A stretch of DNA of 64,000 bases from an uncultured Dehalococcoidia bacterium (GCA_964502995.1 CAZCZB010000005.1:39540-103539), one strand, 5' to 3'. Positions 3,729 to 57,317 are shown, counted from the first letter of the stretch. Translations and numbers: made by a program. Notes: generated by a model not told the origin, from the sequence alone.

Positions 3729-5002
3729 GCGAGTATCCCTGATGCGTAAAAAGTGCCCAAATCGACTTGATACTGCCAGTTTTGCAAGCGGGGGTGCGAC
3801 TCTCCATGGACTATATCAACCAACCCATCCTCAGTTTTGCTGAAGCACATCAAATCCCTGGGTTTTGCGATGGCAACAAACTGTGGCGAATGGGTTGCCA
3901 ACATCATTTGGGCATTGTACACCGAAGACAGCGAGTCAAACGCGGCTTGCAAACCTCCTGGATGAATACCATTTTCTGGTTCCTCGATCATGTACAAGCC
4001 ATAAGTTTCCGGCATATATGCTAACAAGGTGAGTGCCAGTAACCTCAGGGTTCCATCAGAAACTTTCCAGGACGGCACTTCCAGGTTGTTGCTGTATTTC
4101 ACCATCAAGTATTTGTGGCCATCATCGCTGCGGTGTTCCACTCGCACCGATTCAAACCCATCCAACGCGAATTGGATGTGCCCCATCCAATCGGCTGCAC
4201 GGTCAGGGTTTTGTTTTATCAGCGCGTCGGCTACCCACGGCACGTTGGAACCATCGGGAAGGAAATCTCTTCCTGCACCAGGCGGACTTGCTTGCCGCAT
4301 GCGTTCACTGTTTAACGATAACGCAGTCATCCCATCTCTGAGGTAAGCCAATATACGGGTAGTCACAGGATATTCGTCGACGGTGTCGGGCAGTATCGAC
4401 ATCGCAGAGCGTTCCGCACCCAAGTTGAACGCGGCACGCCAACCTTCAGCGCCAGTTTTTTGGACGGTTTCGGGGTAATATCTGCTGCGACCATTCCGGC
4501 TCTTTCCAAAAATGGTGCGCCTACCACGGCCTCCACGTTGAACCATGGTTGACACTGGCGCCAAAGGCTCTGGAAAAAAGTTCAACTGCCTGCCCCTGAA
4601 AGGTAACCCAGGAAGTAAAGCCCCTCTTTCTTCCTCGATACCTATTCGCATTGTTTCCGGGTTCATGCCTACCGCCAGTGTATATCTGAACGACTTGTAA
4701 CCCCGGTCAGATGGTAACAACGCTCGAACCTCGTCCGGCAGGCCAAACTCCAGCGCGATCTCAAACCGCTGCTCCTCTGGATCGTCGGGCCGGCCCCATA
4801 CCAGATCGGCAAAGTTCGAGGTGCGTTTCCTCCAGGCTGCCTCCACTCCATCCCGCACCACGTCGGACACGAACTTGATGGCATCCATCAGCGTGCTTTT
4901 GCCGCTGGCGTTGGGGCCAATGAGCACGTGAAAGCGGTCCATCGGCACATCTACGTACCGCAGGCAACCGTAGTTGAGCACTTGTATGCGGTTGATGATC
5001 AT
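3725..5002 (-). CDS. ABC-type (AAA_15/AAA_21, SMC-like) ATPase, not a transporter subunit
   Basis: Walker A GPNASGKST, signature-like VSDGTLRLLAL, Walker B LYMIEEPENGIHP and H-loop ATHSP. There are no TM segments. Confidence 0.75.
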   Translation of the reverse strand: MIINRIQVLNYGCLRYVDVPMDRFHVLIGPNASGKSTLMDAIKFVSDVVRDGVEAAWRKRTSNFADLVWGRPDDPEEQRFEIALEFGLPDEVRALLPSDRGYKSFRYTLAVGMNPETMRIGIEEERGALLPGLPFRGRQLNFFPEPLAPVSTMVQRGGRGRRTIFGKSRNGRSRYYPETVQKTGAEGWRAAFNLGAERSAMSILPDTVDEYPVTTRILAYLRDGMTALSLNSERMRQASPPGAGRDFLPDGSNVPWVADALIKQNPDRAADWMGHIQFALDGFESVRVEHRSDDGHKYLMVKYSNNLEVPSWKVSDGTLRLLALTLLAYMPETYGLYMIEEPENGIHPGGLQAAFDSLSSVYNAQMMLATHSPQFVAIAKPRDLMCFSKTEDGLVDIVHGESHPRLQNWQYQVDLGTFYASGILA

Positions 5003-5045: not shown

Positions 5046-5798
5046 CTACCCGAAATACCCCTGACCTCCGTTGACGTGCAGGGTTTGGCCGGTTACGAAC
5101 CCGCCGTCGTCGGTGCAGAGGAACGTGATGGCCGACGCGATCTCCTCCGGCTTGCCCTGGCGTCCCAGCGGGATGCCCGACGAATCGGGCACGCGGCCGG
5201 CGTACCACTCCGGATTGGCGCGGGACGTGTCGATGCTGCCGGGAGCGATCACGTTGACCCTGATGTTGTGGGGCGCGAACTCCGAGGCCAGGGCACGGGC
5301 CATGCCCACCAGCCCCATCTTGGCCGCCGATACGTGCGCCCGCAGCGGACTGCCCCGGAACGCGCCGTCCCCGGTGAGGAAAACGATGCGCCCGAAGTTG
5401 TTGGCGACCATCTGCTCAATGACGCCCCGCGTCGTGTAGAAGGAACCGTCCAGCACCACGCCCCGCACGTGCTCCCAATCCTCCAGCGTAAGCTCGGTGA
5501 ACGGCTTGTGAGGGCGAATGGCCGCGTTGTTCACCAGGATGTCGATGCGCCCGAAGGTGGACATGGCCGCGTCTATCATGGCGTCAACCTGTTCCTTGCT
5601 GGACACGTCTGCGATCACCGGCAGCGCCTTGACTCCCAATTCCTCCACCGCGGCGGCGGTAGCCTCTGCCTCATCGTGGTTGCTGCGCGCGTTGACCACG
5701 ATGTTCGCTCCCTCCGATGCCATCATCAACGCCGTCGATCGCCCGATGTTGCGTCCCGACCCGGTAATCAATGCCACTCTGCCGTCCAATTTGCCCAT
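5046..5798 (-). CDS. SDR-family oxidoreductase (FabG-like)
   Basis: MGKLDGRVALITGSGRNIGR (TGxxxGIG-type) together with NNAA, a SAAK-type YxxxK region and PGSIDT. An ATG at 5798 is preceded by AGGAGA. The ORF is open to 5939, but that extension has no homology-like sequence. Confidence 0.8.
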   Translation of the reverse strand: MGKLDGRVALITGSGRNIGRSTALMMASEGANIVVNARSNHDEAEATAAAVEELGVKALPVIADVSSKEQVDAMIDAAMSTFGRIDILVNNAAIRPHKPFTELTLEDWEHVRGVVLDGSFYTTRGVIEQMVANNFGRIVFLTGDGAFRGSPLRAHVSAAKMGLVGMARALASEFAPHNIRVNVIAPGSIDTSRANPEWYAGRVPDSSGIPLGRQGKPEEIASAITFLCTDDGGFVTGQTLHVNGGQGYFG

Positions 5799-8099: not shown

Positions 8100-9242
8100 C
8101 TACCCGAGCAGCCGGTTCAGACCGGAATGCCGCGCCGGGTCCAGGTCGCGCCCCGCCAACGCGGGATGGTCGGGGCCGTAGCGGTGGCACCGGAAGGTGG
8201 CGTTGGTGTATTCCATGCCGCCCGCGCCGCCGGCCGCATCGCTGTGCATGAAGAACGGGTTGATGTACTCCCAGACCACCTCGCCCCGGGGCGTTACTTC
8301 GAACATTCGGCCCGGCGCGCCCTCGCATATCAGAGTGTTGCCATTGGGCTGACGCTCCGCGCTGCTGATGTTGTAGCTGTAGAAGGAAATCGCCGGCTCG
8401 CCCCGGTACTGCCAGTGGATCTCGTTGGTGGCCGGGTCAACCTCAACGATGCGCGAGTGGCTGGCGCCTCTCCGGTGGCCGCCGTTGTCGAATATCAGCA
8501 CGCGCCCGTTTTCCTGCCAGGTGGGATGATGCTGGTGGTAAATCTCGCCCGGCCCCCACTTCCACTTGAACGCTCCGGATTGCCGGTCAACAATGCCCAC
8601 CGTGCTGGTCAGCCGGTAGCTCACCAGCAGGTCGCCATTCGGCGTCACGTTCAGGCAGTTCTGATGGGTCCATTCCCGCCGGGCCTCCAACGGGCAGATC
8701 ACGTCCTCCGCCACGTCGAGATGCTCCCAGGAACGCCACTCCCAGACGGTGTTGCCGTCCGGCGTTACTTCCCGCACCACGTCGCCCAGCATACCGGGAG
8801 CGAAATCAACGTCGAAACCACCCTGCACCTGGGCTTCCAGACCGTCGGGCAGCGGCTCCCACAGCAGCAGCAGCGTGTTGCCGTTGTCCAACCGCTCATA
8901 GTCGTGATGCAGCGTGGGGTCGCGGTACGACCAAACCACGTTGCTGTCCCAGTCCAGCTCGATGATGCTGGCGGACGAGCCGCCCACAGTCTCGATGCCG
9001 CCGGCGTCCCTGGGCGGCATGGTGCGGCAGAGCAGGTTGCCGTTGTCCAGCAGATAGGAGTAGTGGATGCCCTCCTCGGAATGCCAACGATGGACAACGT
9101 TGCCGTGCATATCGATCAGGTAGGCGTCCTTGCCGCCGCGAGTGGTGGAAAACAGCGTATATCCCAGTTGGCACGCCGTCGGTGTGTAGTGGATCAACCC
9201 CACCGGATGATGAATCGACCAACCCATTGCAACCCCCTCCAA
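8100..9242 (-). CDS. Arylsulfotransferase (ASST)-like beta-propeller protein
   Basis: Repeated blades of the form DNGN(L/T)L...(V/I)VWE(Y/W), plus HHDYERLDNGN and HQHHPTWQENG, as in ASST/Arylsulfotran_2 proteins. The start could also be the Met at 9227. Confidence 0.55.
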   Translation of the reverse strand: MEGVAMGWSIHHPVGLIHYTPTACQLGYTLFSTTRGGKDAYLIDMHGNVVHRWHSEEGIHYSYLLDNGNLLCRTMPPRDAGGIETVGGSSASIIELDWDSNVVWSYRDPTLHHDYERLDNGNTLLLLWEPLPDGLEAQVQGGFDVDFAPGMLGDVVREVTPDGNTVWEWRSWEHLDVAEDVICPLEARREWTHQNCLNVTPNGDLLVSYRLTSTVGIVDRQSGAFKWKWGPGEIYHQHHPTWQENGRVLIFDNGGHRRGASHSRIVEVDPATNEIHWQYRGEPAISFYSYNISSAERQPNGNTLICEGAPGRMFEVTPRGEVVWEYINPFFMHSDAAGGAGGMEYTNATFRCHRYGPDHPALAGRDLDPARHSGLNRLLG

Positions 9243-9340
9243 TCACAAAGTTGGCGGATTATAGCAGGGGCGCATCGCATTCCGTTTTCGGTTCGACCCG
9301 CACCGGGGAGCGAACCGGCCGTTCACCCATACCTGCAATC

Positions 9341-10276
9341 TTGCTCCGCTTTGGCTGGCCGTTTGGTATCCTGCCCGCTGTGTGGATTTTGCTTGCCATC
9401 TGCAGCGCGGCCTCGCTGGGCTTCGCCAACATTGCGCACAAGCGGCTGTTGGACAACTACCTGGCCGGCGTCAGCGTCCTGGGCGCCGGCTCGATTCTGA
9501 CCCGCCTCACGTCGGCGGCCATCGTGTTGGCGGTGGTGGGATGGCCCACGGAAGCGCCGTTGCAGGCGGTAGCCGTCGGATTGCTGTCGGGAATCAGCCT
9601 GGGCGCCGGCCTGCTCCTGTTGTTCCTGGGACTGAAACTGGGCGAGGCGTCCCGGGCCGTCGCCATCAGCCAGACCAATCCCATACTGGTGGCCATCCTG
9701 GCCCTGGTGGCGCTGGGCGAACACGTGGGCCCCTGGCAGTGGACGGCCATCGCGCTGGTGGTTCTGGGAGCCATCCTGGTATCGGTCGAAGGCCTGGGCC
9801 GCCGCCTGTTCCGGTTGACGCCGGGGTTGACGGCGTTGGTGGGCAGTTCCGTCGGGCTGGGCATGTCCTTTTTCCTGTCCAAACTGGTTCTGCAAGACCT
9901 GACGCCGTGGGAAGTTTTCGCCATGCAGGAACTGGGCATGGTGCCGGTGTTCGCGGTGTTCGGGCACCCGACGAACTGGCGCAAGTTGTACCGGGGCCTG
10001 CGTTCGTGGTCCGCGCTGACCACGTTCGTGGTGGGTGAGGGGATATTGCCCCAGTTGGCGATCCTGCTGTTCGTCTGGTCGTTTGCCTTTGGCCCGGTAT
10101 CCCTGGCGTCGGCCGTACTGGCGACGCGGCCCATGTTCGTGTTCGTGGCGGGATCGCTGTTGAGTTGGCGGCGGCTGGGCCTGCTGCAGGAGTCGCTGGG
10201 AACTCAGGCGCTGGCGGCCAAATTCATTGCCATTGTCATGATCGTGGCCGGCACAATTCTGCTGGCGGCGCTCTGA
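9341..10276 (+). CDS. EamA/DMT-family transporter
   Basis: About 10 hydrophobic helices in two halves. The ORF opens at 9182, and a TTG at 9341 directly precedes the first helix. Confidence 0.55.
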   Translation: MLRFGWPFGILPAVWILLAICSAASLGFANIAHKRLLDNYLAGVSVLGAGSILTRLTSAAIVLAVVGWPTEAPLQAVAVGLLSGISLGAGLLLLFLGLKLGEASRAVAISQTNPILVAILALVALGEHVGPWQWTAIALVVLGAILVSVEGLGRRLFRLTPGLTALVGSSVGLGMSFFLSKLVLQDLTPWEVFAMQELGMVPVFAVFGHPTNWRKLYRGLRSWSALTTFVVGEGILPQLAILLFVWSFAFGPVSLASAVLATRPMFVFVAGSLLSWRRLGLLQESLGTQALAAKFIAIVMIVAGTILLAAL

Positions 10277-10398
10277 AACGGACGCAACGCGCGGATCCCG
10301 GTACCGGGCAGGACGCGCCGGCCATCGCCGCGGCGGGACTGAAGCAAGCCCCGCCCACCGGTCGCGGCGCTTGCGTAATCACCTACTGATCAGAAGTT

Positions 10399-10422
10399 GG
10401 GGGCGAATAATCATTCGCCCCC
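10399..10422. repeat. REP family A copy
   Basis: gggggcgaataatcattcgccccc. Confidence 0.8.
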
Positions 10423-10453
10423 GGTTGTGCAGTCCTGTGAATGTGGCCCGGGG

Positions 10454-10966
10454 CTAACCTTCCGGCGCCTCGTGGGACCAGGTGAAACCCTGGTCGGGCT
10501 CGTCGATCAGCCTCCACTGGGGCAGCTTGATGTCGCCTTCGACCGGCTGGAAAGCGACCTCTACCCTCTTGCCGATGCCGACGTTCGCCTCCTTCTCCAT
10601 ATTGAAGTCGGCATCCACCAGGTTTCCGGTGATGCGCAGTCCGTCGAACTCGGTGGGCTGCCCACGCTGCTCGTCCAGTTCCACCAGCACGATGGCGAAG
10701 GGCGTGAGATCGCGGAAGCTGGGGATAACGGTGTGGGCCACCACCTGGTATGAGTAGATGGTGCCCTTGCCCGACACCTGCTGCCACTCCCAGTTGATGG
10801 ACGTACACCACGGACACGCCGGCCCCGGCTCGCCGCGCAGCAGCCCGCAGTCGGCGCACTTCTTGACCACCAGGCGACCCTCGCCGGCGGCCTCAAAGTA
10901 TCCCTTGTACTCGGAATCGTTCTCGGGGATGCTCAGTGTGATGCCCCGGTAGTTGTAATTTGCCAT
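10454..10966 (-). CDS. Zn-ribbon/OB-fold protein (DUF35 family), partner of an SCP2-type thiolase
   Basis: Contains CADCG...CPWC followed by OB-fold sequence. An ATG at 10966 is preceded by GGAGAA. It lies downstream of the thiolase-like gene, the usual arrangement. Confidence 0.75.
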   Translation of the reverse strand: MANYNYRGITLSIPENDSEYKGYFEAAGEGRLVVKKCADCGLLRGEPGPACPWCTSINWEWQQVSGKGTIYSYQVVAHTVIPSFRDLTPFAIVLVELDEQRGQPTEFDGLRITGNLVDADFNMEKEANVGIGKRVEVAFQPVEGDIKLPQWRLIDEPDQGFTWSHEAPEG

Positions 10967-10984
10967 TTGTGGTTCTCCAACCCT

Positions 10985-11059
10985 CCCGCTCGTCCTGAGC
11001 CTGTCGAAGGACATCTCAGTCACACTGGATCATGGTTCGACAGGCTCACCATGAGCGGG
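10985..11059. repeat. REP family C hairpin element
   Basis: The arms are cccgctcgtcctgagcctgtcgaa and ttcgacaggctcaccatgagcggg. Related copies lie at 34148, 45843 and in the core of the 47339-47528 element. Confidence 0.8.
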
Positions 11060-11089
11060 CTGTAATGATCTTTGCAATCTCCACGGCGT

Positions 11090-12319
11090 CTAGTTGAGCA
11101 CGTTGCCCATGATGAGCGAACTGCCGACGGCCGGCGTGCCCCAACCCATGTTCATGCTGATCCTGGCGTCCCGCACCTGCCGGCAGCCGCCCTCGTTGTA
11201 GTCGTAAGAGTGGTCGCCTTCCAGCGCGCCGGGGCAATAGTCGTCAACGGTGCCGCGCAGTTGCCGCACGTTCTCGATGACCATGTTCATGCCGTGGGTG
11301 TAGCCCTCGCACAGGTGGCCGCCGCTCAGGTTGTTGGGACGCTTGCCGCCCAGGTTGATAATGCCGCTGGTAACGTAGTCCTTGCCCTCGCCCTTCTCGC
11401 ACCAGCCATAGTCCTCGAACTGCAGCAATACGGTGTAGGTGAAGGCGTCGTAGCATCCGGTGATGTCCACGTCTTCGTGCTTCACGCCGGCCAGTTCAAA
11501 GACGCGGGGGCCAACGTAGTGACCGGCCACGCGGGTGATGGGACCGTGCTGGTAGTGGAAATCGCCGCCGGGCTTGGTGCCGCGACCCTGCACGCCCTTG
11601 ATGTAGATGGGCTTGTGCTTGAGGTCCCTGGCCCGCTCGGCGGAGGTGACGATCACACAGGTGGCGTTATCGGTCTCAAGGCAGCAGTCCAGCAGGTGCG
11701 CCACCGGGCGGATGATCCAGCGCGAGTTCATCACGTCGTCCACGGTGACCCGGTGCTTCATCAGCGCCTTGGGGTTGTTGGAGGCATGATTCGAGTGTGC
11801 GACCTTGATGGCAGCCAGGTCCTCGCTCTTCACGCCATACTCGGCCATGTGGCGGGTGAACGTGTACGAGAACTGCTGCACCGCGCTGATCAGGCCATAG
11901 GGGCGCTTCATCAGGTCCAGCCCGCCGATGGGAGCGGATGCCCGCGCGCCGGTGCCGCCGATGCGCACGTTGGAGTAGCCGTTCATGGAGCGGAAGATGG
12001 CGACCACGTCGCACATGCCCGCCTCGATCGCGCCGATGGCCAGGCCGACCAGCGCCTCGGTGGACGAGCCTCCCCCGGAGCAGTCCATGTAGAAGTTGGG
12101 GCGGATGCCCAGGTCGTACTGGATGGACGTGGAGGGTGTGGAGTCACCGCCGTGGTAACTGAGCATCCCGTCCACCTGGTCGGGAGTCAGGCCGGCGTCA
12201 TTCATGGCATTGCGGATGGCCTCTGCGCCCAATGCGCGGGTGGTTCGGCCGGAGGCGCGGCTGTACTCGGTCTCGCCGACGCCTACGATGCAGTATTTGT
12301 CTCGCGGGTTACCCGCCAT
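11090..12319 (-). CDS. Thiolase-like (SCP2/lipid-transfer type) acetyl-CoA C-acyltransferase
   Basis: Contains MAGNPRDKYCIVGVGETEYSR... and a DCSGGGSS Cys region. An ATG at 12319 is preceded by GGAGGG. It is paired with a DUF35 gene. Confidence 0.8.
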   Translation of the reverse strand: MAGNPRDKYCIVGVGETEYSRASGRTTRALGAEAIRNAMNDAGLTPDQVDGMLSYHGGDSTPSTSIQYDLGIRPNFYMDCSGGGSSTEALVGLAIGAIEAGMCDVVAIFRSMNGYSNVRIGGTGARASAPIGGLDLMKRPYGLISAVQQFSYTFTRHMAEYGVKSEDLAAIKVAHSNHASNNPKALMKHRVTVDDVMNSRWIIRPVAHLLDCCLETDNATCVIVTSAERARDLKHKPIYIKGVQGRGTKPGGDFHYQHGPITRVAGHYVGPRVFELAGVKHEDVDITGCYDAFTYTVLLQFEDYGWCEKGEGKDYVTSGIINLGGKRPNNLSGGHLCEGYTHGMNMVIENVRQLRGTVDDYCPGALEGDHSYDYNEGGCRQVRDARISMNMGWGTPAVGSSLIMGNVLN

Positions 12320-12408
12320 ATCGTTCCCTCCGATTGGTGGTTCTGGAATCGAGCGCCGGCGCATCCGCCCGGCCCCGTGAGGCACGCTAACACGGGCAGA
12401 ACAGGGAT

Positions 12409-13179
12409 TCAAGCGGTATCCCGTTCGTCAAACTCCTCCGGCTCTCCGGCGTCGGGCGGCGTCACAACCACAACCTCAACGCCCTTGTCTTCAGCCAATT
12501 GACGATATGCGGGAGATACAGAGTAACCGGCAACCACTGCCATGGTGGCATGGCTGGTCAGCTTTTCCAACAACCGCGCCCGGTCTGCGGCGCGCATGAT
12601 GTCCCGTTCACCAATTCCTGAGGATACTTCCACCGCTAACCGGGTTTCCTGACGCGTATCCCGGTCAATGCCGCGCACTGCCACGTCGAGGGCCATCAAA
12701 GATCTCCGGTCGCTATCGGTAAAGAAACCGGCGTCGATGGCATCGTCGATCTGGTCGGCCAGGACTGATTTATCAATCACCCGAATACGCCGGAGCAGGT
12801 GGCCGAAAAGGCCGGCAGCGTTGTCCCGGAATCTACGCTCGGCTTCGTCGCCAAGCAGCCGATTCCGATGTCTCTCGTGACGCTCCAACCGGTGGTCAAT
12901 GCGTCTCAGCCAATTGGTATGCTCCTCCAGAAGCTTGGTATGCCCTTCCAGAAGCTTGGTATGCTCCTCCAGAAGCTTGGTATGCCCTTCCAGAAGCCGG
13001 CTGTGGTTTTCCAGCGTAACAGCCTGCGCCTGCACTCCCGCTATCAGCGCGCGGACCTGGGCCGGCATCTGCCGGAACTCCTCGTCCAGGATCTGCTGCC
13101 GCAATCGCTCCCGGTATTCCGGGTTTCGCTCCAACAGAGCCATCAGATCGTCGAAAGTGATGATTTCCTCGGTGGCCAT
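12409..13179 (-). CDS. Coiled-coil protein with a C-terminal restriction-endonuclease-like (D...ExS) module; function unknown
   Basis: Heptad repeats LLEGHTK/LLEEHTK occur four times. The C-terminus ALDVAVRG...RLAVEVSSGIGERDI...AVVAG resembles a family of repeated paralogues in Thermus, Chloroflexi and cyanobacteria (from memory only). Confidence 0.4.
   Translation of the reverse strand: MATEEIITFDDLMALLERNPEYRERLRQQILDEEFRQMPAQVRALIAGVQAQAVTLENHSRLLEGHTKLLEEHTKLLEGHTKLLEEHTNWLRRIDHRLERHERHRNRLLGDEAERRFRDNAAGLFGHLLRRIRVIDKSVLADQIDDAIDAGFFTDSDRRSLMALDVAVRGIDRDTRQETRLAVEVSSGIGERDIMRAADRARLLEKLTSHATMAVVAGYSVSPAYRQLAEDKGVEVVVVTPPDAGEPEEFDERDTA
12916..12999. repeat. Four tandem 21-bp units inside the CDS, encoding the heptads
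   Basis: ggtatgctcctccagaagctt alternates with ggtatgcccttccagaagctt. Confidence 0.9.
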
Positions 13180-13209
13180 GCTGACGTTTCCCTGCGTCCG
13201 TTTAAACTA

Positions 13210-14226
13210 TCAGGTATAAACCACCTGCATGGCCTGCCGGACGTTATCCATGGTTTCCTGGGCGATGGCCCGCTCGCGCTCGGTGCCTGCTTTCAGGACG
13301 TCGCGCACGTAGTCGGGGTGTTCCTCGTACCAGGCCCGCCGCTCGCGGATCGGTTCCAGGAAACGGTTGATGGCGGCGGTGAGTGTGTCCTTCACCTCTC
13401 CGTCGCTGACCGTGCCGGCGGTGTATCGTTCCTTCAGTTCCGCCACCTCGTCCTGGTTGTCGTTGAAGGCGTCGTGGTACAGGAACGCCGGGTTGTATTC
13501 CACCACGCCGGGATCGGTGGCGCGGAGCCTGGGGTTTTCGCCGGTAATGTCGGACACCATGCGCCGCACCCGTCGCTGCACCGTTTCGGGGTCGTCGGCC
13601 AGGTAGATGGTGTTGTTCAGGCTCTTGCTCATCTTGGCCTGTCCGTCGGTTCCGACGAGACGGGGCACCCGGCCAACGCGGGCGCGCGGAACCGGAAACA
13701 CCTCGCCGTACAGCCGGTTGAACCGACGGGCGACGTTCCGCGTGTACTCGATATGCGGCACCTGGTCCTCGCCCACCGGCACCAGGTGCGCCTTGGGCAG
13801 CAGAATGTCCGCCGCCTGGCTGATGGGGTAGTTGAAGAACCCCAGGGTGATGGACTGGTTTTCGGACTCAAGCTGTTCCGTTTCCGCGCGCAGGGTCGGA
13901 TTCTTCTGGTGCTGGTTGAGCGGCATCAGCATCGAGAAGTACATGGTCAGTTCGGCGTGTTCGGGCACGTAACTCTGGATGACGAAGGCCGATTTCTCAG
14001 GGTCCAGACCCACGGCCAGCCAGTCGGTGGCGACCTCAATCACCGAGCGCTGGATCAGGCCGATGTCGTCCAGATGGTCGCCCATGGCCTGGTAGTCTGC
14101 AATCAGAAAGAAGCACTCGTACTCGTTTTCCAACTGGAGCCAGTTCTCCAGCGCGCCGAGATAGTGCCCAAGATGCAGTTGCCCGGTGGGGCGCATGCCG
14201 GTGAGAATGCGTTGCTGGTCAGCCAT
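13210..14226 (-). CDS. trpS: Tryptophan--tRNA ligase
   Basis: Carries TGMRPTGQLHLGHYLGAL (HIGH-type), GEDQ and KMSKS. The length is 338 aa. Confidence 0.95.
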   Translation of the reverse strand: MADQQRILTGMRPTGQLHLGHYLGALENWLQLENEYECFFLIADYQAMGDHLDDIGLIQRSVIEVATDWLAVGLDPEKSAFVIQSYVPEHAELTMYFSMLMPLNQHQKNPTLRAETEQLESENQSITLGFFNYPISQAADILLPKAHLVPVGEDQVPHIEYTRNVARRFNRLYGEVFPVPRARVGRVPRLVGTDGQAKMSKSLNNTIYLADDPETVQRRVRRMVSDITGENPRLRATDPGVVEYNPAFLYHDAFNDNQDEVAELKERYTAGTVSDGEVKDTLTAAINRFLEPIRERRAWYEEHPDYVRDVLKAGTERERAIAQETMDNVRQAMQVVYT

Positions 14227-14268
14227 GTTCCGGAACCCTCACTAATAGTCCAATCAAATTTGAGATTG

Positions 14269-14466
14269 CTACGACGACAACCTGAAAGCCACAGAAAGCA
14301 GAATTCCGGCGATCCCGAGCCAGAACCAGGAAACGGTTCGATACAAAACCTTCAGGAAAAACCTCGATGTGTTGATGGCTTCGGTTCGTTCTGCCAACTC
14401 GTGAAACACTGCTCCCGCGAATCCAATTCCCACTACGAAAACGACATAGACCAGCGCCACGCTCAC
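14269..14466 (-). CDS. Small two-helix membrane protein (hypothetical)
   Basis: The GTG start overlaps the stop of the upstream small ORF (GTGA at 14463-14466). The sequence is VSVALVYVVFVVGIGFAGAV...WFWLGIAGILLSVAF. Confidence 0.35.
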   Translation of the reverse strand: MSVALVYVVFVVGIGFAGAVFHELAERTEAINTSRFFLKVLYRTVSWFWLGIAGILLSVAFRLSS

Positions 14467-14630
14467 GTAACGCTGCCTTGTCGCCAATGAAGCCAGGTTG
14501 CAATTACGGCAGCTGCGACACCCACCAATATGATTGCGCCAATCGGCGCCAACCACTGATATTGGTACTCGCAAGCAGATACCGTATATGGTGGCGCGGT
14601 GCAGATATGGTTCAGGAAAAACTCCTTCAT
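14463..14630 (-). CDS. Small one-helix membrane protein (hypothetical)
   Basis: An ATG at 14630 is preceded by AAGGAGG. The sequence is MKEFFLNHICTAPPYTVSACEYQYQWLAPIGAIILVGVAAAVIATWL. Confidence 0.45.
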   Translation of the reverse strand: MKEFFLNHICTAPPYTVSACEYQYQWLAPIGAIILVGVAAAVIATWLHWRQGSVT

Positions 14631-14860
14631 GTGGGTTCCTCCTTCGCTGGCAGTCTGGCCAATGCACACACCCGGCTAAAGGTGTCAGCGTCAGGCCTGC
14701 CGCGTGATTGATGATGGGTTGCCAGATATTTTAGCAGTTTGTCAGTTGCAGTTGCCTTACGCTCACCCGCAGCAATTCTGTCGAACGGTGCGGCATTGCA
14801 GCGTCGTGCGCCCTCTCAATACCGGGGCGCAGACGCAGCCGATGAAGCGTGCTGTTGCCA

Positions 14861-17122
14861 TTAATCTTCTTCGCCGATGGTTCCCGCCAGGGCTCTGGCC
14901 CGTCGTATTGCCGCATCCGGCAGGGATTCTCGCGCCTGCTGGCGGAGCTTCAAATGTTCGAGGATATTGTCCGTGGCCGCAGCTTTGCACTCGCCGCACG
15001 TCAGTTTCCCGGAGCGGCATCGTTCCTGAAGCTCGGTGTACGCCCCCGGCTCCAAAGTGGCGTGAAAAGCGTGCAGGCTCGACACGCTGCATACTCGCGG
15101 GTCGGGATTTCCTCCCAGTTCCCGCTGTTCCGTCAGCGTCTGCCGACCGCCCGTGTACGCCCTCAAAATACGTCGCCGAACGTCCTCGGTCGTGTCGTTG
15201 TAGGCGATACGTCCCTGGGGCACCGCATTGGTCATCACGTCCACCGCGCTTCCCGTGCTCGGATCGTCGTAGGTGGTCAGGCCGCGCATTGGTCGCAGGT
15301 ACAGCGCAGACGGCTTGATGAATCCGAACTTCTCGGCAATGTTTCGCGCCATGCGCACGTACACGTCGCCGCCAATGCTGTCGATGACCAACGTGCGGCA
15401 GGGCCCCGCCATTTCCGGCTGCTGGACGTGCAAAATCGAGGCCAGCCGCAGCAGGGGCAGGAAGGTATCGGTCACGCTGGTACTCAACCGCAATCCCAAC
15501 GCGGAGTTCAACGTGCTCAATGGAATGGCCTCGCCCAACTTGAACGCGGTCTCCACCACCGCGGGGCGTTCCAGTTCCATGTTTGCGTCCGTCTGATGCA
15601 AGTCCAGGCCCGCCGCCGCCAAGGTCAACAGCCGCTCAGTCGCGTTCGCCCGGGCGGTTTCGCGCGAATTCGGATCGCCGTGGAAACCAAGCGAAACCTC
15701 GGCGCCCAATGAGTTAAAGTACAGCAGCAGGTTCCCCAGGGCCATTTCTCCCAGGTGCATCGGTCCTTCCGTGGACATGGTTGCTATCACTTTGCACCGT
15801 TGGCCGTCCTCCAACGCCTGCATGAAGAGGTCAGCGTCCCGGCTGCCCACAACCTGCCCGGTCAGAATGTAGGGATGCGGCTCCTCGAACCATTGCGCAA
15901 ACCTGCTTTGCTGCTCAGGGTAGGCCTCGTTGAGTCCGGTGACCCGCAGTTCTTTGATCAGTTCATTCTCGCGGGCCAGTGGTTGGTCGCCGGTACGCAC
16001 CACCAGCGACGGGATGGCCATGTCGGCCTCCTCGGTGCGCGTCTCCGGTGAATCGGCGTCGAGAATCTGGCCGTGCAGTCGGATCAGGCGTTGGGCGATG
16101 TCGTTTAGCGTGCGCTCCTGCACCTCGCGGGCGTTGGACAACAGCAGACGAGCGATGTCCTCGGCGGTTTCCGCCGACAGGCCCAACTGCCTCGCCTTGC
16201 GCCTCGCGCCGATGAAAAGGTTTTCCTCCACGGCGGGCTTGTGGATGGTGTCGCTCTCCAGGTACTTTTCGGCCGCCACGTTGCGAGATGCCTCGATGCG
16301 GTCGTGGGTCAACTCCAGGATGCGCTCGTGGCTGCCCGCGATGATGGCGCGCTGCTGTCCCCGGTACTCAGCGTAGGGAAGGCCTCCACCCGGCATCTGA
16401 GAACGGACCAGCGCAGGATCTTCGCCCTCCAGCAGTCGCTCCACGCCGCGCCGCAGGGTTGCGATCTCCGACAGGCGGCGCCAGTCAGGAGGAACCAGCG
16501 CGCCCGGTTGGCTGTCCAGCCACTGTGCCAGCCTGGGCATCCGCTCGTCATACATTGCTCGCGCCGCCGGTAATTCCAGCCGTTCGCGCATATCCAGCGC
16601 GGGCGCGAGGCACTGCATGCGGTACGCGGCCAGATGGTTCTCGCGGGCCCGTCCGGGCGAGGGAACTTCCTTGATGCGGTCGGAGTGGTGTTCCACGGTG
16701 GTCAGGTCAAGGAGCGCCGCGTGCCAAAGACACCTCGCGTTCGCGTCATCGGTGGAACCGTCCCACGCGCCCGATACCGCGGCGCGCACCGATGCGACAA
16801 AAGCATCGGGCGCCCCCGACCCGCGCAGCCAGGCTTCGGCAATGGCCGCCGATGTGTCGGCGCGGCGCGGGTCGTCGGGTGAACCTGCCAGGTAAAACAG
16901 GGCGGCAGCGTTGACTGCGGAGAAATCCACCGCCGCGTCACCGGCTTCGGCCAGTTCACCGGCGGTGGCGGCGATTCTGCGGGCCGCCGGCAATCCGTCG
17001 GCATCGCGATGGCTCGCGTAAATAGCCGGCAGCGAGTTGGCGAGCCGGTGGGCGTCAGGCGTGTACTGCTGGGCAGTGGTCATTGCCGGTATCAGAGCAA
17101 CGATAGATTCGGATTGCCACAT
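14861..17122 (-). CDS. Fusion protein: an unknown N-terminal domain of about 400 aa joined to a degenerate TrpRS-like class-I synthetase domain with a 4-Cys motif
   Basis: The C-terminal half aligns by eye to the neighbouring TrpS: ATMSTEGPMHLGEMALGNL vs TGMRPTGQLHLGHYLGAL, and ELQERCRSGKLTCGECK vs ELKERYTAGTVSDGEVK. GxDQ and KMSKS are absent. The start is either 17122 or 17083; the ORF is open to 17272, which would overlap the upstream gene. Confidence 0.6.
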   Translation of the reverse strand: MWQSESIVALIPAMTTAQQYTPDAHRLANSLPAIYASHRDADGLPAARRIAATAGELAEAGDAAVDFSAVNAAALFYLAGSPDDPRRADTSAAIAEAWLRGSGAPDAFVASVRAAVSGAWDGSTDDANARCLWHAALLDLTTVEHHSDRIKEVPSPGRARENHLAAYRMQCLAPALDMRERLELPAARAMYDERMPRLAQWLDSQPGALVPPDWRRLSEIATLRRGVERLLEGEDPALVRSQMPGGGLPYAEYRGQQRAIIAGSHERILELTHDRIEASRNVAAEKYLESDTIHKPAVEENLFIGARRKARQLGLSAETAEDIARLLLSNAREVQERTLNDIAQRLIRLHGQILDADSPETRTEEADMAIPSLVVRTGDQPLARENELIKELRVTGLNEAYPEQQSRFAQWFEEPHPYILTGQVVGSRDADLFMQALEDGQRCKVIATMSTEGPMHLGEMALGNLLLYFNSLGAEVSLGFHGDPNSRETARANATERLLTLAAAGLDLHQTDANMELERPAVVETAFKLGEAIPLSTLNSALGLRLSTSVTDTFLPLLRLASILHVQQPEMAGPCRTLVIDSIGGDVYVRMARNIAEKFGFIKPSALYLRPMRGLTTYDDPSTGSAVDVMTNAVPQGRIAYNDTTEDVRRRILRAYTGGRQTLTEQRELGGNPDPRVCSVSSLHAFHATLEPGAYTELQERCRSGKLTCGECKAAATDNILEHLKLRQQARESLPDAAIRRARALAGTIGEED

Positions 17123-17165
17123 AATACCAGCAATGTCGGCGGCGGGACGATGCCCGCTGTGCCAA

Positions 17166-17846
17166 CTAGGAATCGAGTCGTTGCAGGAACCGGGCGATGG
17201 CCTCGTTGCACGCCTCCGGTTGTTCCAGCGTAACGAAGTGGCCCGAGTTGGGAACCACCACGACCTCGGCATCCGGCAGCTCGCGGCCCAGGTATTCGGC
17301 GTAGCGCACGGGCGTCATGACATCGTCGGCGCCGACAATGACCAGCGACGGTATGGCAATTTCCTTCACCCGTTCCATCACGTCGAACTTGTCGCAGCAG
17401 ACCAGATCGTTGTGCTCTACCATTGGGCCGGATCGCAGGGCACGCTCGGCCAACTGAGGGGCCAGGTCGCGGTTGATCGCCTCATAGTAGCCGGGGGCTT
17501 CGGATCGCCACTGGGCGTCGTCCAGACAGCGAGTCAGGTAGTCGGGATGCACGCGAAGGCGGGCGCCGGTGCCGATCAGCACCAGGCCGGCCAGATCCTC
17601 AGGGAAGCGCAGCGCATAGTCCAGCACGATTGCCCCGCCCATCGAGTGCCCGAAAAGCACGAACGGCGCGTAACCCCGGGCTGTGGCGTACTCGCGAACC
17701 CAGTCCACGTAGCCGCCGATGGTATCCCGAGGTTCGCCGTCGGGGTGGCCGGGCAGATTCACCGCGTCGGCGTCGTCGAAAGCCCGTGTCTGGTAGTGGT
17801 AGGTGAGTTCGTTCTGGCCGGAGCCGTGAACCATGACGAGTTGCAT
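17166..17846 (-). CDS. Alpha/beta-fold hydrolase
   Basis: Contains MVHGSGQN (HG oxyanion region) and the GHSMGG nucleophile elbow. The ATG is at 17846. Confidence 0.8.
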   Translation of the reverse strand: MQLVMVHGSGQNELTYHYQTRAFDDADAVNLPGHPDGEPRDTIGGYVDWVREYATARGYAPFVLFGHSMGGAIVLDYALRFPEDLAGLVLIGTGARLRVHPDYLTRCLDDAQWRSEAPGYYEAINRDLAPQLAERALRSGPMVEHNDLVCCDKFDVMERVKEIAIPSLVIVGADDVMTPVRYAEYLGRELPDAEVVVVPNSGHFVTLEQPEACNEAIARFLQRLDS

Positions 17847-17878
17847 TAAAGTGTCCTGTCGGGTGATTGGGTTGGGGT

Positions 17879-18073
17879 TTACTTCTTCGGCATCGCTGGC
17901 GGCGGGTCGTCGTCGTCCAGCAATTCCGGGTTGGCAGCGATCCGGCGTTCCAGCCACGCCTGCCACCGGGCTGATTCTTCCGCGCGACCTTCGTCCTTGC
18001 CCTTGCCCAGGCCTTCAGCCAGGGCTTCCTCGCGTATCAGGTCCATGGCCCTTTGCTTGAGCGTTTGGAACAT
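17879..18073 (-). CDS. Small charged hypothetical protein (64 aa)
   Basis: An ATG at 18073 is preceded by AAGGAG at about 8 nt. The protein is helical and charged, with an acidic, Pro-rich tail. Confidence 0.45.
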   Translation of the reverse strand: MFQTLKQRAMDLIREEALAEGLGKGKDEGRAEESARWQAWLERRIAANPELLDDDDPPPAMPKK

Positions 18074-18461
18074 GATCGCAACTCCTTTGACTATCCAGCC
18101 GCTTATCGTAGAAGCCCAGGGCAAGCCGGGCAAAACCCGGATATCCTCACCAGGTTTGCCGCCGTATCCCTGCCCTCCCGCGCTCCCCAATAACTCAGTA
18201 CCAGAGAAGCCAAAGCGATGCAGACTACGGCTTCGTCTGCGACGCCGATTCGGTCCTGAACGAGGCCGCTGACGGGTATTTTCCAACCGTCCGGCCAGGC
18301 TTCCAACCGTGGCAGGGACAGCGCGGTGGCGTATAACGCCAACAGCAATATCAACCACCGCGCGCCATGCGCAACCGTCCGCAGCGCCGCGGCCTTCAAG
18401 CCGGCTGGGGAGCGGAGACTTCCCATACGCCAGACGGTCGCTATTGTATCTTATCGGACGG

Positions 18462-21197
18462 TTACAGCAGCGTCCCCTGCTCGTTCATCGGCGTTTCCGG
18501 ATCGTCGTCTTCATCCTCAACCGTGTCGTCAGACAGTTCCGCCTGATCCAACTCAGTTTCTTCATCCTCGTCGTACTGGCTATCGGCGACAGCCGCCACC
18601 GCTTCGGCCTGTTCCAGCACGGAATTGGCGTCAGCCTCCGCGCCGTTCTGACGGGTGGGGTCGCCCTGGCTGTAATCGTTGGCGCGGAAACAGTAGATGG
18701 ACACCACGCTGTCGTCACCGCCGCGCTCGCGCCAGATGATGACGCCCTTGGTCTGGCGTGTGTTGACCACCTTGACCTCGGCCAGGTTTATTCGCACCAC
18801 CTGGCCCTGCGCCGAGATGATGAACACCTCGTGCCCTTCTTCCTCGTTCATTTCCGCTGAGTTGACAACCTTGGCGTCCACCACCGGGCCGGTGGGCTTG
18901 TCGCCCTGGTCAACGGCAAAGGTCTTGACGCCCATGCCTCCGCGGTTGGTCTCCCGATACACGGCCTCGCCCTTGCTGTTGTACAGGGGCGTGGCTTTGC
19001 CGTAGCCCTTTTCGCTCACCACCAGCAGGTACTCGTCCTCGGGGTTGTTGACCACGTCCATGGCCACCACCCGGTCGCGTCCGTTGAATTCGTCCTTGAA
19101 CTTCATGCCGATTACGCCCGTCGCATTGCGGTTCCGTTCCGGTATGCTGCTCACCGGGCACAGCAGGGCCTGACCCTGTTCGGTGACCAGTACGATGGAG
19201 GCATCGCTGGACACGGGACGCACCGCAATCATCTCGTCGCCGTCCTGTATCTTCATGGCGATCAGGCCGGATTTGCGCAGGTTTTTCAGCTGGCCGGGCC
19301 TCAGGGCATTCACGCGCCCGTTGCGCGTGGCAAAGATGTACAGGCTGTTGTATTCGTCCCTGCTGGCGGGCAACATGGTCTGCACCTGCTCACCCGGTTG
19401 CAGCGGAATCAGGTTCACCAGCAAGGTGCCCCGGGCCGTTCGCCCAGTGTCGTTGGGAGTTTCGTACACGTTGAGCGGATACACGCGCCCCTTGTTGGTG
19501 AAAAACAGCAGTTGGTCGTGGGTATTGACCACGGCGATCTGCATCACCGCGTCGTCGTCGCGGTTATTGGCGCCGCGCACGCCCTTGCCGCCGCGCTTCT
19601 GGGTGCGGTACGTGTTGATGGGCACGCGCTTGATGTAGCCTCGCTGGCTCAGGGAGACGACCACGTCCTCCTGAACGATGAACTGCTCGATGGACTGCTC
19701 CTCCAACTCCTGCGCGATGATCTCGGTGCGACGCGCGTTGGCGTGCTTGCGCTTCACCTCGCGGGTTTCCCGCTTGATCTCGTTGCTAATCTTCTGCGGG
19801 TTCTGGAGCAGGTCTTCCAGTTCGGCGATGGTCGCCAGCAGGTCGTTGTACTCCTCGTCCAGCCGCTGCCGTTCCAGCGCGGCCAGGCGACGCAATTGCA
19901 TATCCAGGATGGCCTGCGCCTGAATTTCGGTCAGGTCAAATTCCTGCACCAGGTTGTTGCGCGCCGTTTCCACGTCCTGGCTGTTGCGGATGGTCTCGAT
20001 GATGGCGTCGATGGCGTCCAGCGCCTTGAGCAGACCCTCCACGATGTGGGCGCGGTCGCGGGCGCGGCCCAGCTGGTACTCGGTGCGGCGCCGGATGACG
20101 TCCTCACGGTGCAGGACGAAGTAGCGAATCAGGTCCTTGAGCGACAGTTCCTGGGGCTGTCCGTCCACCAGCGCCAGCATGATGGCGTTGAAGGAAGAGC
20201 GCAGGGCCGTGCGCTTGTACAGGTTGTTGAGAATCACCGTGGCCTGCGCGTTCCGCGACAACTCGATAACCACTCGGATGCCCCGGCGGTCCGACTCGTC
20301 GCGGATTTCCGTGATGCCCACCAGAGTCTTGTCGCGCACCAGTCCGGCGATCTTTTCCACCAGGTTCGCCTTGTTGACCTGGAAAGGCAGTTCGCTGACG
20401 ATGATACGCTGCCGGTTGTTGCGCATCTCCTCAATCTCGGTGACGGCCTCCATCACGACGCGGCCGCGCCCGGTGGCGTACATATCGCGGATGCCGGAGA
20501 TGCCGCGGATGCGTCCGTGGGTGGGGAAATCCGGCCCCGGCACGATGGCCATCAGTTGGTCAACGTCGCAGTTGGGATGGTCAATGACGTGGCAAACGGC
20601 GTCGCAGATTTCGCCAAGGTTGTGCGGCGGCATGTTGGTTGCCATGCCCACCGCGATGCCGGACGAACCGTTGACCAGCAGGTTGGGCATCCGGGCCGGC
20701 AGAACCTGGGGTTCCCGGATCGAGTCGTCGAAGTTGTCGGTGAAATCGACGGTCTGCTGGTCAATATCCGCCAGCATCTCGTCGGCGATGGCGGTGAGGC
20801 GAGCCTCGGTGTAGCGCATGGCCGCCGGCGGGTCGCCGTCGATGCTGCCGAAGTTGCCCTGTCCGTCGATCAGAGGCGCGCGCATCGAGAACGGCTGCGC
20901 CATTCTCACCAGCGCGTCATACACGGAACCGTCGCCGTGGGGGTGGAACTTGCCCAGCACTTCGCCGACGATACGGGCGCTCTTGCGGTACTGGCTGCCC
21001 GGGCGGATGCCCATGTCGTGCATGGCGTACAGGATCCGGCGCTGCACCGGCTTGAGTCCGTCGCGCGCGTCGGGCAGCGCGCGGGACACGATGACCGACA
21101 TCGCATAGGACAGATACGACTCGCGCATCTCGTCTTCGATGGGTCGGGGAGTGAAATCACCGCCGGTCTGTGGTGGGGGTGGGGGCGCTGTGGTCAT
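18462..21197 (-). CDS. gyrA: DNA gyrase subunit A
   Basis: Contains [21 protein letters not shown] and AAMRYTE. The C-terminal beta-pinwheel region has repeated blades and ends in an acidic tail. Confidence 0.95.
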
Positions 21198-21862
21198 GGT
21201 TGGCTATCTCCTGTGGCGGTGAAATCTTCGGCCCGCTCCACCAATCCCAGAAAGAGGTTGTTGAAACTGGCCGGCACTTCGTCGGCGCGCTCGGGCAAAA
21301 ACTGGACTGCGATCACCCAGCTGTGTTCCTTGCTCTCCAGACCTTCAATTACACCATCGTCAAGCTGGTAGGCGATGGACATGAGCCGTTGGGCGCGTTG
21401 GGATTCCTTCAGGGCCAGGCGGCGGTTCCACGCGCCGTTGTTGACTCGGAACATTCCGGCGCTGCCCACGATGGCAGCCATTTTGGATCCCGGCGAAAGG
21501 TATATCTGACGTCGGGCCGGCCGGCCCGACGCATCATCGTATTCTTCGTTGTATGGCGATTCCGAGGCGGCAGGTCGTCCGCCGCCGAAACCGGAGTTGA
21601 GGAGGTACATGCCCCGCCCGGTCAGCAGGGTTGGCATATCCGCGGCCATGGCCGCTTCGAGCAACGCCAACGCGCCGTCGCTGGGGCCGTCGGCGTCGAA
21701 TCCGGTGTCGGGGACAAGGAGGCCGCCGGCTCCCGACAGTTCATCAGGGCCCGACGTTGGGGTAACTACACTTACTCGACCGCCGGCCGCCTCAACCGCG
21801 CGGATGCCTGGATCTGGATGGTGGCCGTTGCGGTGAGTGGCCAGTATGGCAATGGTCGGCAA
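21194..21862 (-). CDS. Class-I glutamine amidotransferase (peptidase C26-like) homologue lacking the catalytic Cys and His
   Basis: [11 protein letters not shown] aligns to the family motif GICRGMQLLN (Cys replaced by Gly). VIAVQFLPE aligns to GVQWHPE (His replaced by Leu). The stop overlaps the gyrA ATG (ATGA at 21194-21197). Confidence 0.55.
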
Positions 21863-22004
21863 AACAACTTCAGAGACTTGAAAATAGTATTTGTATTATA
21901 CTAAAAATTGTCACATTATGCCAATTGTTTCGTGTGCAAACTTTCGTCGTCTTTCATTGATCATCAGCCCCATGATACTCTGTCAACGGCCGAATGGAGG
22001 CCAA
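21863..22004. promoter_or_regulatory. AT-rich divergent intergenic region, probably carrying promoters for both flanking operons
   Basis: This is the only strongly AT-rich stretch in the neighbourhood (e.g. cttgaaaatagtatttgtattatactaaaaattgtcacattatg). I could not place unambiguous -35/-10 boxes. Confidence 0.3.
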
Positions 22005-54087: not shown

Positions 54088-54112
54088 TCGGATACGAACT
54101 TTCGCCGCTGGG

Positions 54113-56773: not shown

Positions 56774-56825
56774 AAATCAGCGTTCCTTGAGGGTGTGATG
56801 CGGCCATTGTAGCACCGGGGGACCG

Positions 56826-57284
56826 GTGCGAATGTTGGGCCGGCACGATGTGGAGGTGTGCTATATTCGATTCGATTCGACGATTCCGAGGTTTCTCCCA
56901 GTGCTATACGAGGTTGAAGTGGTTGCCGACGGCAACAGTCCCATGGATCTGAACCGGGTTTTTGACCTGCTGACCGACCCTCGGCCGGTGCTGCGAATCA
57001 TTGCGCCGGACCCGATGGGGAACGACGTCTGGTGCGACGTGGCGGGTTGGGAGAACGGCGAGCCGTGTCCTGCGATGGCCGCGCTGTCGGAGGACTCGGG
57101 CGAGGGCGTCATTATGCTGATCTACGGGGGCGAGGACGGCATTCGCCTGAAGCCCGCCGAGGGATCAGGCGACTGGGACGGCGATTCCTCGGATCAGTGG
57201 GGCGAGGCATGCCTGATGCTGGGGAACGACGTGGAGATCGAGTACGCGCCGGCGGGTTGGGATTACGGGCAGCATCCGCATTGA
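56826..57284 (+). CDS. Hypothetical acidic protein (start uncertain, possibly GTG 56901)
   Basis: Strong third-position G+C bias. I recognise no family. Confidence 0.4.
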   Translation: MRMLGRHDVEVCYIRFDSTIPRFLPVLYEVEVVADGNSPMDLNRVFDLLTDPRPVLRIIAPDPMGNDVWCDVAGWENGEPCPAMAALSEDSGEGVIMLIYGGEDGIRLKPAEGSGDWDGDSSDQWGEACLMLGNDVEIEYAPAGWDYGQHPH

Positions 57285-57317
57285 CCAGTTGGGTGGTTTG
57301 TACGTACAGCATCCATG

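Follow-up and report, generated by a model that had tools for sequence, protein, structure and literature searches.

A TrpRS-like module lacking key catalytic residues is fused to a predicted AroQ chorismate mutase domain and paired with trpS in Chloroflexota

The stretch of DNA analysed here, 64,000 nucleotides from an uncultured Dehalococcoidia bacterium (GCA_964502995.1 CAZCZB010000005.1:39540-103539; GC 57–68%; hereafter the window), carries on its minus strand a gene for a three-part fusion protein, located upstream of the tryptophanyl-tRNA synthetase (TrpRS) gene trpS. The minus-strand reading frame is uninterrupted over 14861–17272, in agreement with an earlier note on this DNA, made from the sequence alone, which had placed the gene at 14861–17122. 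Since more than 140 homologues of about 740 aa, one of them 100% identical, begin at the equivalent of MTTAQQ, the start most likely lies at 17083, 13 codons inside the earlier-called one. The whole gene (14861–17083) encodes 740 aa plus stop, and all residue numbers below refer to this frame. The protein consists of an HD-like domain, an AroQ chorismate mutase (CM) domain and a TrpRS-like module. The full-length AlphaFold2 (AF2) model has a mean predicted local distance difference test (pLDDT) score of 84.9, with internal disorder only at residues 341–365 and 605–620. Conservation, counted throughout over 120 Chloroflexota family members and given for whole parts as mean pairwise identity, is highest in the CM domain with the linker and TrpRS extension (92%), followed by the TrpRS Rossmann and anticodon-binding domains (72–78%) and the HD-like domain (61%). 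It is firmly supported that a non-aminoacylating, archaeal-type TrpRS paralogue with an Fe-S motif is joined here to an intact-looking AroQ CM domain, and that the fusion gene forms an operon-like pair with trpS.

The N-terminal ~400 aa, in which the earlier note had recognised no motif, comprise an HD-fold domain, an AroQ CM domain and an N-terminal extension of archaeal TrpRS type, and the finding of the CM domain completely changes the functional reading of the fusion protein. The AroQ (type II) domain (aa 235–337, 16073–16381, minus strand) is made up of three long helices and was identified by Pfam, BLASTP and AF2. Pfam CM_2 (PF01817) matches 20 of the 20 members tested (best E=2e-8), and three relatives score above its threshold, namely P0131 (36.6 bits), P0133 (34.9 bits) and the standalone protein P0139 (46.6 bits). 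Additionally, the region aligns by BLASTP without gaps to a canonical 91-aa AroQ protein (P0141; E=6e-14), which has all eight canonical residues, correctly spaced. Through P0141, residues R245, R262, K273, E286 and Q322 align with R11′, R28, K39, E52 and Q88 of Escherichia coli chorismate mutase (EcCM). These five residues are invariant in the 120 members; R245, R262, E286 and Q322 stay invariant down to 28% identity, and K273 nearly so. The helices reach pLDDT 75–90 in the full-length model with a deeper alignment. They fall below 50 when aa 1–400 are modelled alone, and the Foldseek output for that shorter model is uninformative on the CM domain. A single-sequence phmmer search of the CM region against the PDB gave no CM match, and the residue mapping was made through P0141. 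As judged from the conserved site residues, the domain probably is active as an intertwined dimer, which would endow the fusion protein with CM activity. No second AroQ gene was found in the window or within ±10 kb of 62 related loci, and no aromatic-pathway genes were found elsewhere in the 64-kb window.

The C-terminal ~375 aa are predicted, by profiles and by structural modelling, to form a complete archaeal/eukaryotic-type TrpRS fold. The NCBIfam profile PRK12285.1-2 matches residues ~398–724 with E=1e-48, a significant match to the region (430–750 in the earlier note) on which that note had staked its derivation of the C-terminal half from TrpRS. The score of 166 bits compares with an equivalog cutoff of 451, and TIGR00233 gives 86 bits against a cutoff of 177; the fusion protein thus falls far under all TrpRS equivalog cutoffs. 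The best solved relatives in a phmmer search of the PDB include the TrpRS of Aeropyrum pernix (3a04, E=1e-25) and of Pyrococcus horikoshii (3jxe). In line with this, Foldseek places the AF2 model closest to 3a04 (TM score 0.83, E=2e-19, 26% identity), with human TrpRS at ~0.8 and the bacterial-type Thermotoga maritima enzyme 2g36 at 0.65, and the overall TrpRS fold, a Rossmann domain plus a helical anticodon-binding domain, is present. The earlier note had aligned the module along the whole neighbouring TrpS as its paralogue. The two products share only 24% identity (E=7e-5), and the module is of archaeal type. A recent duplication of the neighbouring trpS was accordingly rejected as an origin, archaeal-type profiles and structures fitting far better.

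Specifically, the module can be divided into three parts, all on the minus strand. The linker and TrpRS N-terminal extension (aa 338–429, 15797–16072; 92% identity) were delimited by alignment to human, A. pernix and P. horikoshii TrpRS, and the extension contains an HPY..TG..VGSRD motif. The relic of the Rossmann catalytic domain (aa 430–640, 15164–15796) is defined by alignment, residue counts, AF2 and Foldseek, and the helical anticodon-binding domain (aa 641–724, 14912–15163) by mapping to human and A. pernix residues. Linker residues 341–365, DADSPETRTEEADMAIPSLVVRTGD, are ~92% conserved in the family yet predicted to be disordered (pLDDT <50), and this segment may fold only upon binding of a partner or of tRNA. 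Part of the same segment resembles the N-terminal β-hairpin (VTPWDVEG) of archaeal TrpRS.

The functional residues of human TrpRS were taken from published work (PMC1538984, PMC2275098), with the human sequence confirmed against PDB 1o5t, and were mapped through an alignment of the human, A. pernix and P. horikoshii enzymes with the fusion family. As demonstrated by this alignment, all three signature motifs are reduced to relics: HIGH to H443-L-G-E446 (15746–15757, minus strand), AIDQ to I570-G-G-D573, and KMSKS to V616-M-T-N-A620 (15224–15238, minus strand). The partly kept HIGH motif (HLGE) and the loss of GxDQ, here GGD, are as first described. The KMSKS motif is indeed lost, although not replaced by an unrelated insertion as had been thought; rather, an insertion of 8–10 residues precedes the VMTNA relic of the loop. 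At the tryptophan-binding positions (human numbering), Y159 is replaced by I433 (I, L or V in the family), Q194 by G466 and Q284 by R546, while E199 and K200 are deleted. The Asp-Gln pair of AIDQ is gone (D312/Q313 to G571/G572), as are the adenylation residues K349 of KMSAS (V616) and R162 (M, V or F), and the KMSKS lysine is missing in 120 of 120 Chloroflexota members. The fourth HIGH residue is H in 100 of the 120 members and otherwise D, E, N, Q, Y or R, and the Asp of the 'AADIL' motif is S549 in the window copy. Across the family, the relic positions H446, D469 and D549 vary. Compared with most members, the window copy has decayed further, showing Y64, E446, G469 and S549 at positions where H, H, D and D are retained in 83–90% of the family. 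The equivalents of the adenine contacts of the human enzyme, H443, G445 and M617, are kept. Because the KMSKS lysine, the AIDQ Asp-Gln pair, the tryptophan-binding Tyr/Gln/Glu/Gln and, in the window copy, the second HIGH histidine are lost, the TrpRS-like module very probably cannot aminoacylate, as the earlier note had argued. The same note had taken the scaffold of the Trp/ATP pocket to be retained, a view that does not survive the alignment, in which the pocket is remodelled.

These residues bear on two alternatives. A second TrpRS with full activity, such as a copy with appended domains that resists stress or antibiotics, would agree with the name 'tryptophanyl-tRNA synthetase' that JGI gives to some members (others are named 'hypothetical protein' in databases) and with the near-canonical motifs of the short form P0135 described below. 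We see hardly any chance for it, given that the KMSKS lysine, the AIDQ Asp-Gln pair and the tryptophan-binding residues are gone in the window copy and in the whole Chloroflexota clade, with scores far under every equivalog cutoff. Secondly, tryptophan activates chorismate mutase in yeast and plants, and by the same metabolic logic the TrpRS-like pocket could bind free tryptophan and activate the fused CM domain, as in yeast Aro7 and plant CM1. The kept H443, G445 and M617, and the earlier idea of a retained pocket scaffold, would suit such a sensor; the replacement or deletion of every Trp-contact residue, together with the serine at the 'AADIL' aspartate in the window copy, makes it distinctly unlikely.

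The residues that would contact tRNA show the opposite pattern to the lost catalytic ones. The equivalents of the anticodon readers, T644-G645-G646-R647, Q653, G697 and K700, are at least 98% invariant (n=120) and map to human S378/G379/G380/R381/H387/G428/K431, which recognise the CCA anticodon. By direct count on the pairwise alignment, Q653 aligns with A. pernix Q293. The helix of the extension that aligns to human helix α1′, which holds the 3′ end and the discriminator base of the tRNA in the human enzyme (PMC1538984), is also kept, with L369, R371, E372 and E378 invariant down to 28% identity. The cysteine tetrad of the earlier note, C-x23-C-x6-C-x2-C, is present as C665, C689, C696 and C699 (nt 14987–15091), with C665 and C699 in 120 of 120 members and C689 and C696 in 119. 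It fits the published motif C-x(21–24)-C-x6-C-x2-C, whose cysteines hold the [4Fe-4S] cluster of T. maritima TrpRS in its anticodon-binding domain (PMC2954223), and the fusion protein may bind such a cluster. The tetrad had been regarded as a gain relative to the housekeeping enzyme and as a possible redox cluster pointing to a new role. A. pernix and P. horikoshii TrpRS already carry Cys at the aligned positions; A. pernix 3A04 is reported to hold a cubane, and the adjacent Q293 has been proposed as reader of the 5′ anticodon base (PMC4027196). By alignment, the tetrad is thus an ancestral inheritance from Fe-S archaeal TrpRS and part of the anticodon site, and because it is ancestral in that anticodon-binding domain, no new redox function can be read from it. 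That the tetrad persists although catalysis is lost argues for anticodon binding as a task which the module still performs, and the conservation pattern favours the sensor or tRNA-binding role that the earlier note had listed. The fusion protein may therefore bind tRNA-Trp.

The same cluster site allows for a different activity, in which the protein is a new tRNA-Trp-directed enzyme and uses prephenate, produced on the spot by its CM domain, as a co-substrate, for instance as an O-donor. In this case, tRNA-Trp or Trp-tRNA-Trp would be modified at C34 beside the Fe-S cluster, or at its 3′ end in the remodelled pocket. A precedent for prephenate- and Fe-S-dependent RNA hydroxylation exists in RlhA, which makes ho5C2501 (PMC5727448), and prephenate serves as organic O-donor (PMC10990095) for RlhA, TrhP and UbiU/V, Fe-S-dependent hydroxylases that act on RNA or quinones. 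In Fe-S TrpRS the cluster adjoins the 5′ anticodon base, and this position, as well as a former active site that is remodelled but invariant, would agree with this idea. On the other hand, ligation by four cysteines leaves no open Fe site, and the fusion protein has no homology to the U32 peptidase-like hydroxylases or to CmoA/CmoB. Such an enzyme, which is drawn purely from analogy, is very improbable.

The HD-like domain (aa 1–230, 16394–17083, minus strand) is all-α, with pLDDT ~90, and has the fold of the HD superfamily. Foldseek of aa 1–~200 returns 2pq7 and Bacillus subtilis YpgQ (5dqw) with probability 1.0 and TM scores of 0.67–0.71. The HD dyad reads H64-L65 in the family (H in 107 and L in 114 of 120) and Y64-L65 in the window copy, and the H...HD...D metal-ligand motif is absent. 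The domain is the fastest-evolving part of the protein except the C-terminal tail and is missing from the short-form relatives. It is probably non-catalytic.

Searched exhaustively and without profiles, the N-terminal 400 aa yielded only 21 cluster representatives, which fall into four groups: long forms of Chloroflexota; more divergent long forms (P0122, P0124, and P0131 with 33% identity); short forms; and two standalone CM-like proteins. The short forms, of ~520–550 aa and without the HD-like domain, include P0133–P0135 and a Chloroflexota clade (L060–L068, ~50% identity). In this clade, the gene, of up to 550 aa at about 9970–11620 on the plus strand, lies directly upstream of trpS and encodes the motifs HVGQ, GGLERD and VMHG, with His replacing Q653. 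The CM site residues, the TGG motif, K700 and the four cysteines are kept in all fusions. Close relatives in the species-representative genome collection are all from metagenome-assembled genomes of Chloroflexota (Dehalococcoidia/SAR202-type), and the family is confined to Chloroflexota and a few divergent metagenomic relatives. The short form P0135 keeps GPMHLGH, GIDQD, RMSSS and A. pernix-like pocket residues, and may still be an active synthetase. In a search for further short, possibly active fusions, P0135 remained a singleton whose nearest relatives are plain Bathyarchaeia TrpRS. At its loci (L004, 2114–3459, minus strand, and L005), the convergent neighbours belong to PF01947 (chorismate pyruvate-lyase-like) and PF02621 (MqnA/MqnD), both chorismate-utilising families. 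In the simplest history, an archaeal (TACK-type) Fe-S TrpRS would have gained an AroQ domain, catalysis would have been lost in Chloroflexota, and one branch would have gained the HD-like domain.

The trpS gene of the window (13210–14226, minus strand) encodes a housekeeping bacterial-type TrpRS of 338 aa with intact HLGH, GEDQ and KMSKS (TIGR00233 296 bits, cutoff 177; Pfam E=5e-66). The gene order of the earlier note, hydrolase, fusion, two small membrane open reading frames (ORFs), trpS and coiled-coil protein, is seen as it was stated, and the question it had raised, whether the fusion always neighbours trpS, can be answered for species-level loci: in 61 of 62, trpS is directly downstream on the same strand, at gaps of 6 to ~900 nt and often 30–90 nt. 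The pairing holds in 20 loci without the upstream gyrA/α-β-hydrolase context, the short-form clade included, and at the locus of the 31% identical P0131 (L007). Since it persists where the other neighbours differ, fusion and trpS are the conserved unit, and the hydrolase, thiolase and coiled-coil genes are local synteny. The two genes are probably co-transcribed; a promoter/terminator scan gave background level only. At L007, a bacterial-type tRNA-Trp(CCA) gene with G73 and G1:U72 lies ~1 kb beyond trpS (5527–5601, minus strand). No tRNA-Trp gene was found in any of the other 57 loci scanned, and the window contains no tRNA genes. At 12409–13179 (minus strand), a coiled-coil protein of 256 aa is encoded that has HTKLLE(E/G) repeats in tandem and matches DUF3135 weakly; its gene is a variable insertion, which separates trpS from the thiolase gene in only about half of the related loci.

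Two small membrane ORFs lie between the fusion gene and trpS in about a third of loci. The first (14463–14630, minus strand; 55 aa, conserved) encodes MKEFFLNHICTAPPYTVSACEYQY followed by a single transmembrane helix; it is found at this place in 22 of 62 species loci and usually begins at or overlaps the stop codon of the fusion gene. The second (14269–14460, minus strand; ~63 aa, ...YRTVSWFWLGIAGILL...) has two predicted transmembrane helices and is conserved with a 3-nt period. The ~230-nt 'spacer' before trpS shows codon-periodic conservation across 15 loci and is for this reason coding rather than an RNA leader. A T-box, RNA leader or tRNA mimic between the two genes was rejected, as the spacer is coding and Rfam gave no relevant match in 9000–22000.

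Two further explanations were considered. In the first, the wiring is reversed: the AroQ-like domain would sense chorismate or prephenate, and the output of the pseudo-TrpRS would be directed at tRNA, so as to sequester or chaperone tRNA-Trp, pass it to TrpRS, or regulate the operon, according to aromatic precursor supply. CM domains are known as ligand-sensing regulatory modules in type I-β DAH7PS. The invariant anticodon readers, acceptor-end helix and Cys tetrad, the tight operon with trpS, and weak structural matches of the HD-fold domain to the tRNA-contacting HD domains of GlyRS-β and CCA enzymes would also fit. All five principal AroQ catalytic residues are kept, which is more than binding alone needs, and neither an RNA leader nor a tRNA mimic turned up in front of trpS (Rfam; coding spacer). 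We hold this reversal to be rather doubtful. In the second, the protein would be the plain CM of its lineage, and the TrpRS-like and HD-like modules would be structural relics that serve dimerisation or stability. The CM domain and linker are by far the most constrained parts, the short forms do without the HD-like domain, the relic catalytic positions H446, D469 and D549 drift, and no locus has a second AroQ gene within ±10 kb. A scaffold, however, needs no invariant anticodon readers, Q653, K700 and four cysteines (in 120 members, and down to 28% identity), and would not explain the constant place upstream of trpS while other neighbours change. We consider a plain CM unlikely.

We tentatively propose, as the explanation that we favour over the others but in the knowledge that it has a somewhat smaller chance of being right than of being wrong, that the fusion protein is a chorismate mutase gated by the status of tRNA-Trp through the dead TrpRS module. 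In this model, which is built by analogy with other synthetase-derived regulators, the module would bind tRNA-Trp through its anticodon/Fe-S site and its acceptor-end helix, the most likely ligand being uncharged tRNA-Trp not yet used by the real TrpRS. The tRNA-bound module would then allosterically tune the fused, obligately dimeric CM domain, which stands where the routes from chorismate to Trp and to Phe/Tyr divide, through the rigid and highly conserved junction of CM domain, linker and TrpRS. Chorismate would thereby be committed to Phe and Tyr only when the charging of tRNA-Trp, and hence the supply of tryptophan, is adequate. That the two modules are coupled at all, and with which sign, we infer from analogy.

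Several observations weigh against a tRNA-gated CM. The former active site is remodelled yet invariant (R546, GGD, VMTN, H443-L-G), which a passive sensor explains no better than a new ligand or chemistry would. In the CM domain, the CM_2 score of the window copy is 26.7 bits against a gathering threshold of 27, and three secondary AroQ positions are changed (D48 to K282, R51 to V285, S84 to A318). K282 is invariant across the extended family, and the R51 equivalent is retained in three divergent members (P0124, P0131, P0133). The predicted template modelling score of the AF2 model is 0.56, and the interdomain geometry is without confident prediction. The binding of a bacterial (G73) tRNA-Trp by an archaeal-type module is assumed from the conservation of the anticodon readers alone, and operon linkage with trpS is, taken alone, no guide to the signal that is sensed.

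If a tRNA-gated CM is nevertheless the right explanation, the fusion would open a functional route to the [4Fe-4S] cluster of TrpRS, whose purpose is puzzling. That the cluster motif outlasts the loss of aminoacylation argues for a role of the cluster in binding tRNA (the anticodon) rather than in catalysis. Family members are frequent in Dehalococcoidia/SAR202-type Chloroflexota that are marine or associated with sponges, whose aromatic amino acid metabolism has, as far as is known, been inferred mainly from genome annotation, and genome annotation calls the fusion gene a 'hypothetical protein' or miscalls it as a synthetase.

Some other features of the window are recorded here. Over its last 10 kb (54000–64000), the GC skew climbs steadily from ~0.13 to 0.28, unlike in the rest of the window. 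A single 619-aa ORF at 48186–50045 (minus strand) contains ETF (β-type) and ETF_alpha FAD-binding domains and may represent an EtfB-EtfA fusion. Two paralogous ORFs in tandem, each of ~1135 aa (34503–41311, plus strand), both end in an FtsX-like permease domain and have no Pfam match over most of their length. An AAA_21/AAA_15 ATPase of AbiEii-like type (3725–5002, minus strand) is a candidate defence or toxin-antitoxin component, and the related locus L001 has a VapB/PIN pair in the same general neighbourhood.

Finally, we compared the fusion protein with known systems. Full-text literature searches returned no description of a CM–TrpRS fusion or of a TrpRS paralogue in Chloroflexi. The CM–TrpRS architecture and its linkage to trpS are new, whereas pseudo-enzymes derived from aminoacyl-tRNA synthetases are already known. 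The Fe-S TrpRS of A. pernix (3A04) and the Bathyarchaeia TrpRS have in common with the fusion the full fold, the N-terminal extension, TGGR...EEQR...GGxP, the Cys tetrad and the Gln Q293/Q653. In contrast to these archaeal enzymes, the fusion has a degenerate HIGH motif and the 8–10-aa insertion, lacks AIDQ, KMSKS and the Trp-binding residues, adds N-terminal AroQ and HD-like modules, and coexists with a bacterial-type housekeeping TrpRS. YpgQ-type HD phosphohydrolases (5DQW, 2PQ7) have the fold of aa 1–200 (TM ~0.7); unlike in these, the dyad of the fusion is H-L or Y-L, conservation is low and the domain is lacking in short forms. With AroQ CMs such as the CM domain of the E. coli P-protein, the fusion has in common the three-helix domain and the equivalents of R11′, R28, K39, E52 and Q88. 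It differs from them by D48 to K, an invariant family signature, R51 to V and S84 to A, and its activity is predicted from sequence.

As in the DAH7PS-CM bienzymes, the CM domain of the fusion is joined to a second module, so that allosteric cross-talk is plausible; the partner is a pseudo-synthetase and not a shikimate-pathway enzyme. AroQ domains do serve in allosteric bienzyme assemblies (PMC8408635, PMC5526877). An extra archaeal-type TrpRS (TrpRS-A/TrpRS-A-like) with a partner, ORF1, has been described in bacteria of the candidate phyla radiation (CPR) and in DPANN archaea (PMC5370408). TrpRS-A-like proteins resemble the fusion in being archaeal-type copies that occur in bacteria besides the canonical TrpRS, in carrying indels, and in having an associated or fused all-helical partner; in this comparison, made by description only, they differ in that no CM or HD domain is reported and in their host phyla. 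The fusion may or may not be related to that system. Paralogues of aminoacyl-tRNA synthetases act as sensors in HisZ, a HisRS paralogue that regulates the ATP-PRT HisG, and in GCN2, whose HisRS-like domain senses uncharged tRNA (PMC4335047, PMC7373986). We liken the fusion to these cases, in which a dead synthetase-derived sensor of amino acid or tRNA status steers another enzyme concerned with the cognate amino acid, the sensing being hypothetical here. In contrast to the class II HisRS-derived HisZ and GCN2, the fusion derives from the class Ic TrpRS, it stands in cis with its putative target, and this target is CM, an enzyme of the competing branch. Should a tRNA-gated CM prove correct, the protein would be a bacterial single-polypeptide counterpart of the HisZ/GCN2 principle, in which a dead synthetase reads the status of its cognate tRNA and steers a branch-point enzyme that competes for the precursor, and class I synthetases and the aromatic pathway would each gain their first example of it.

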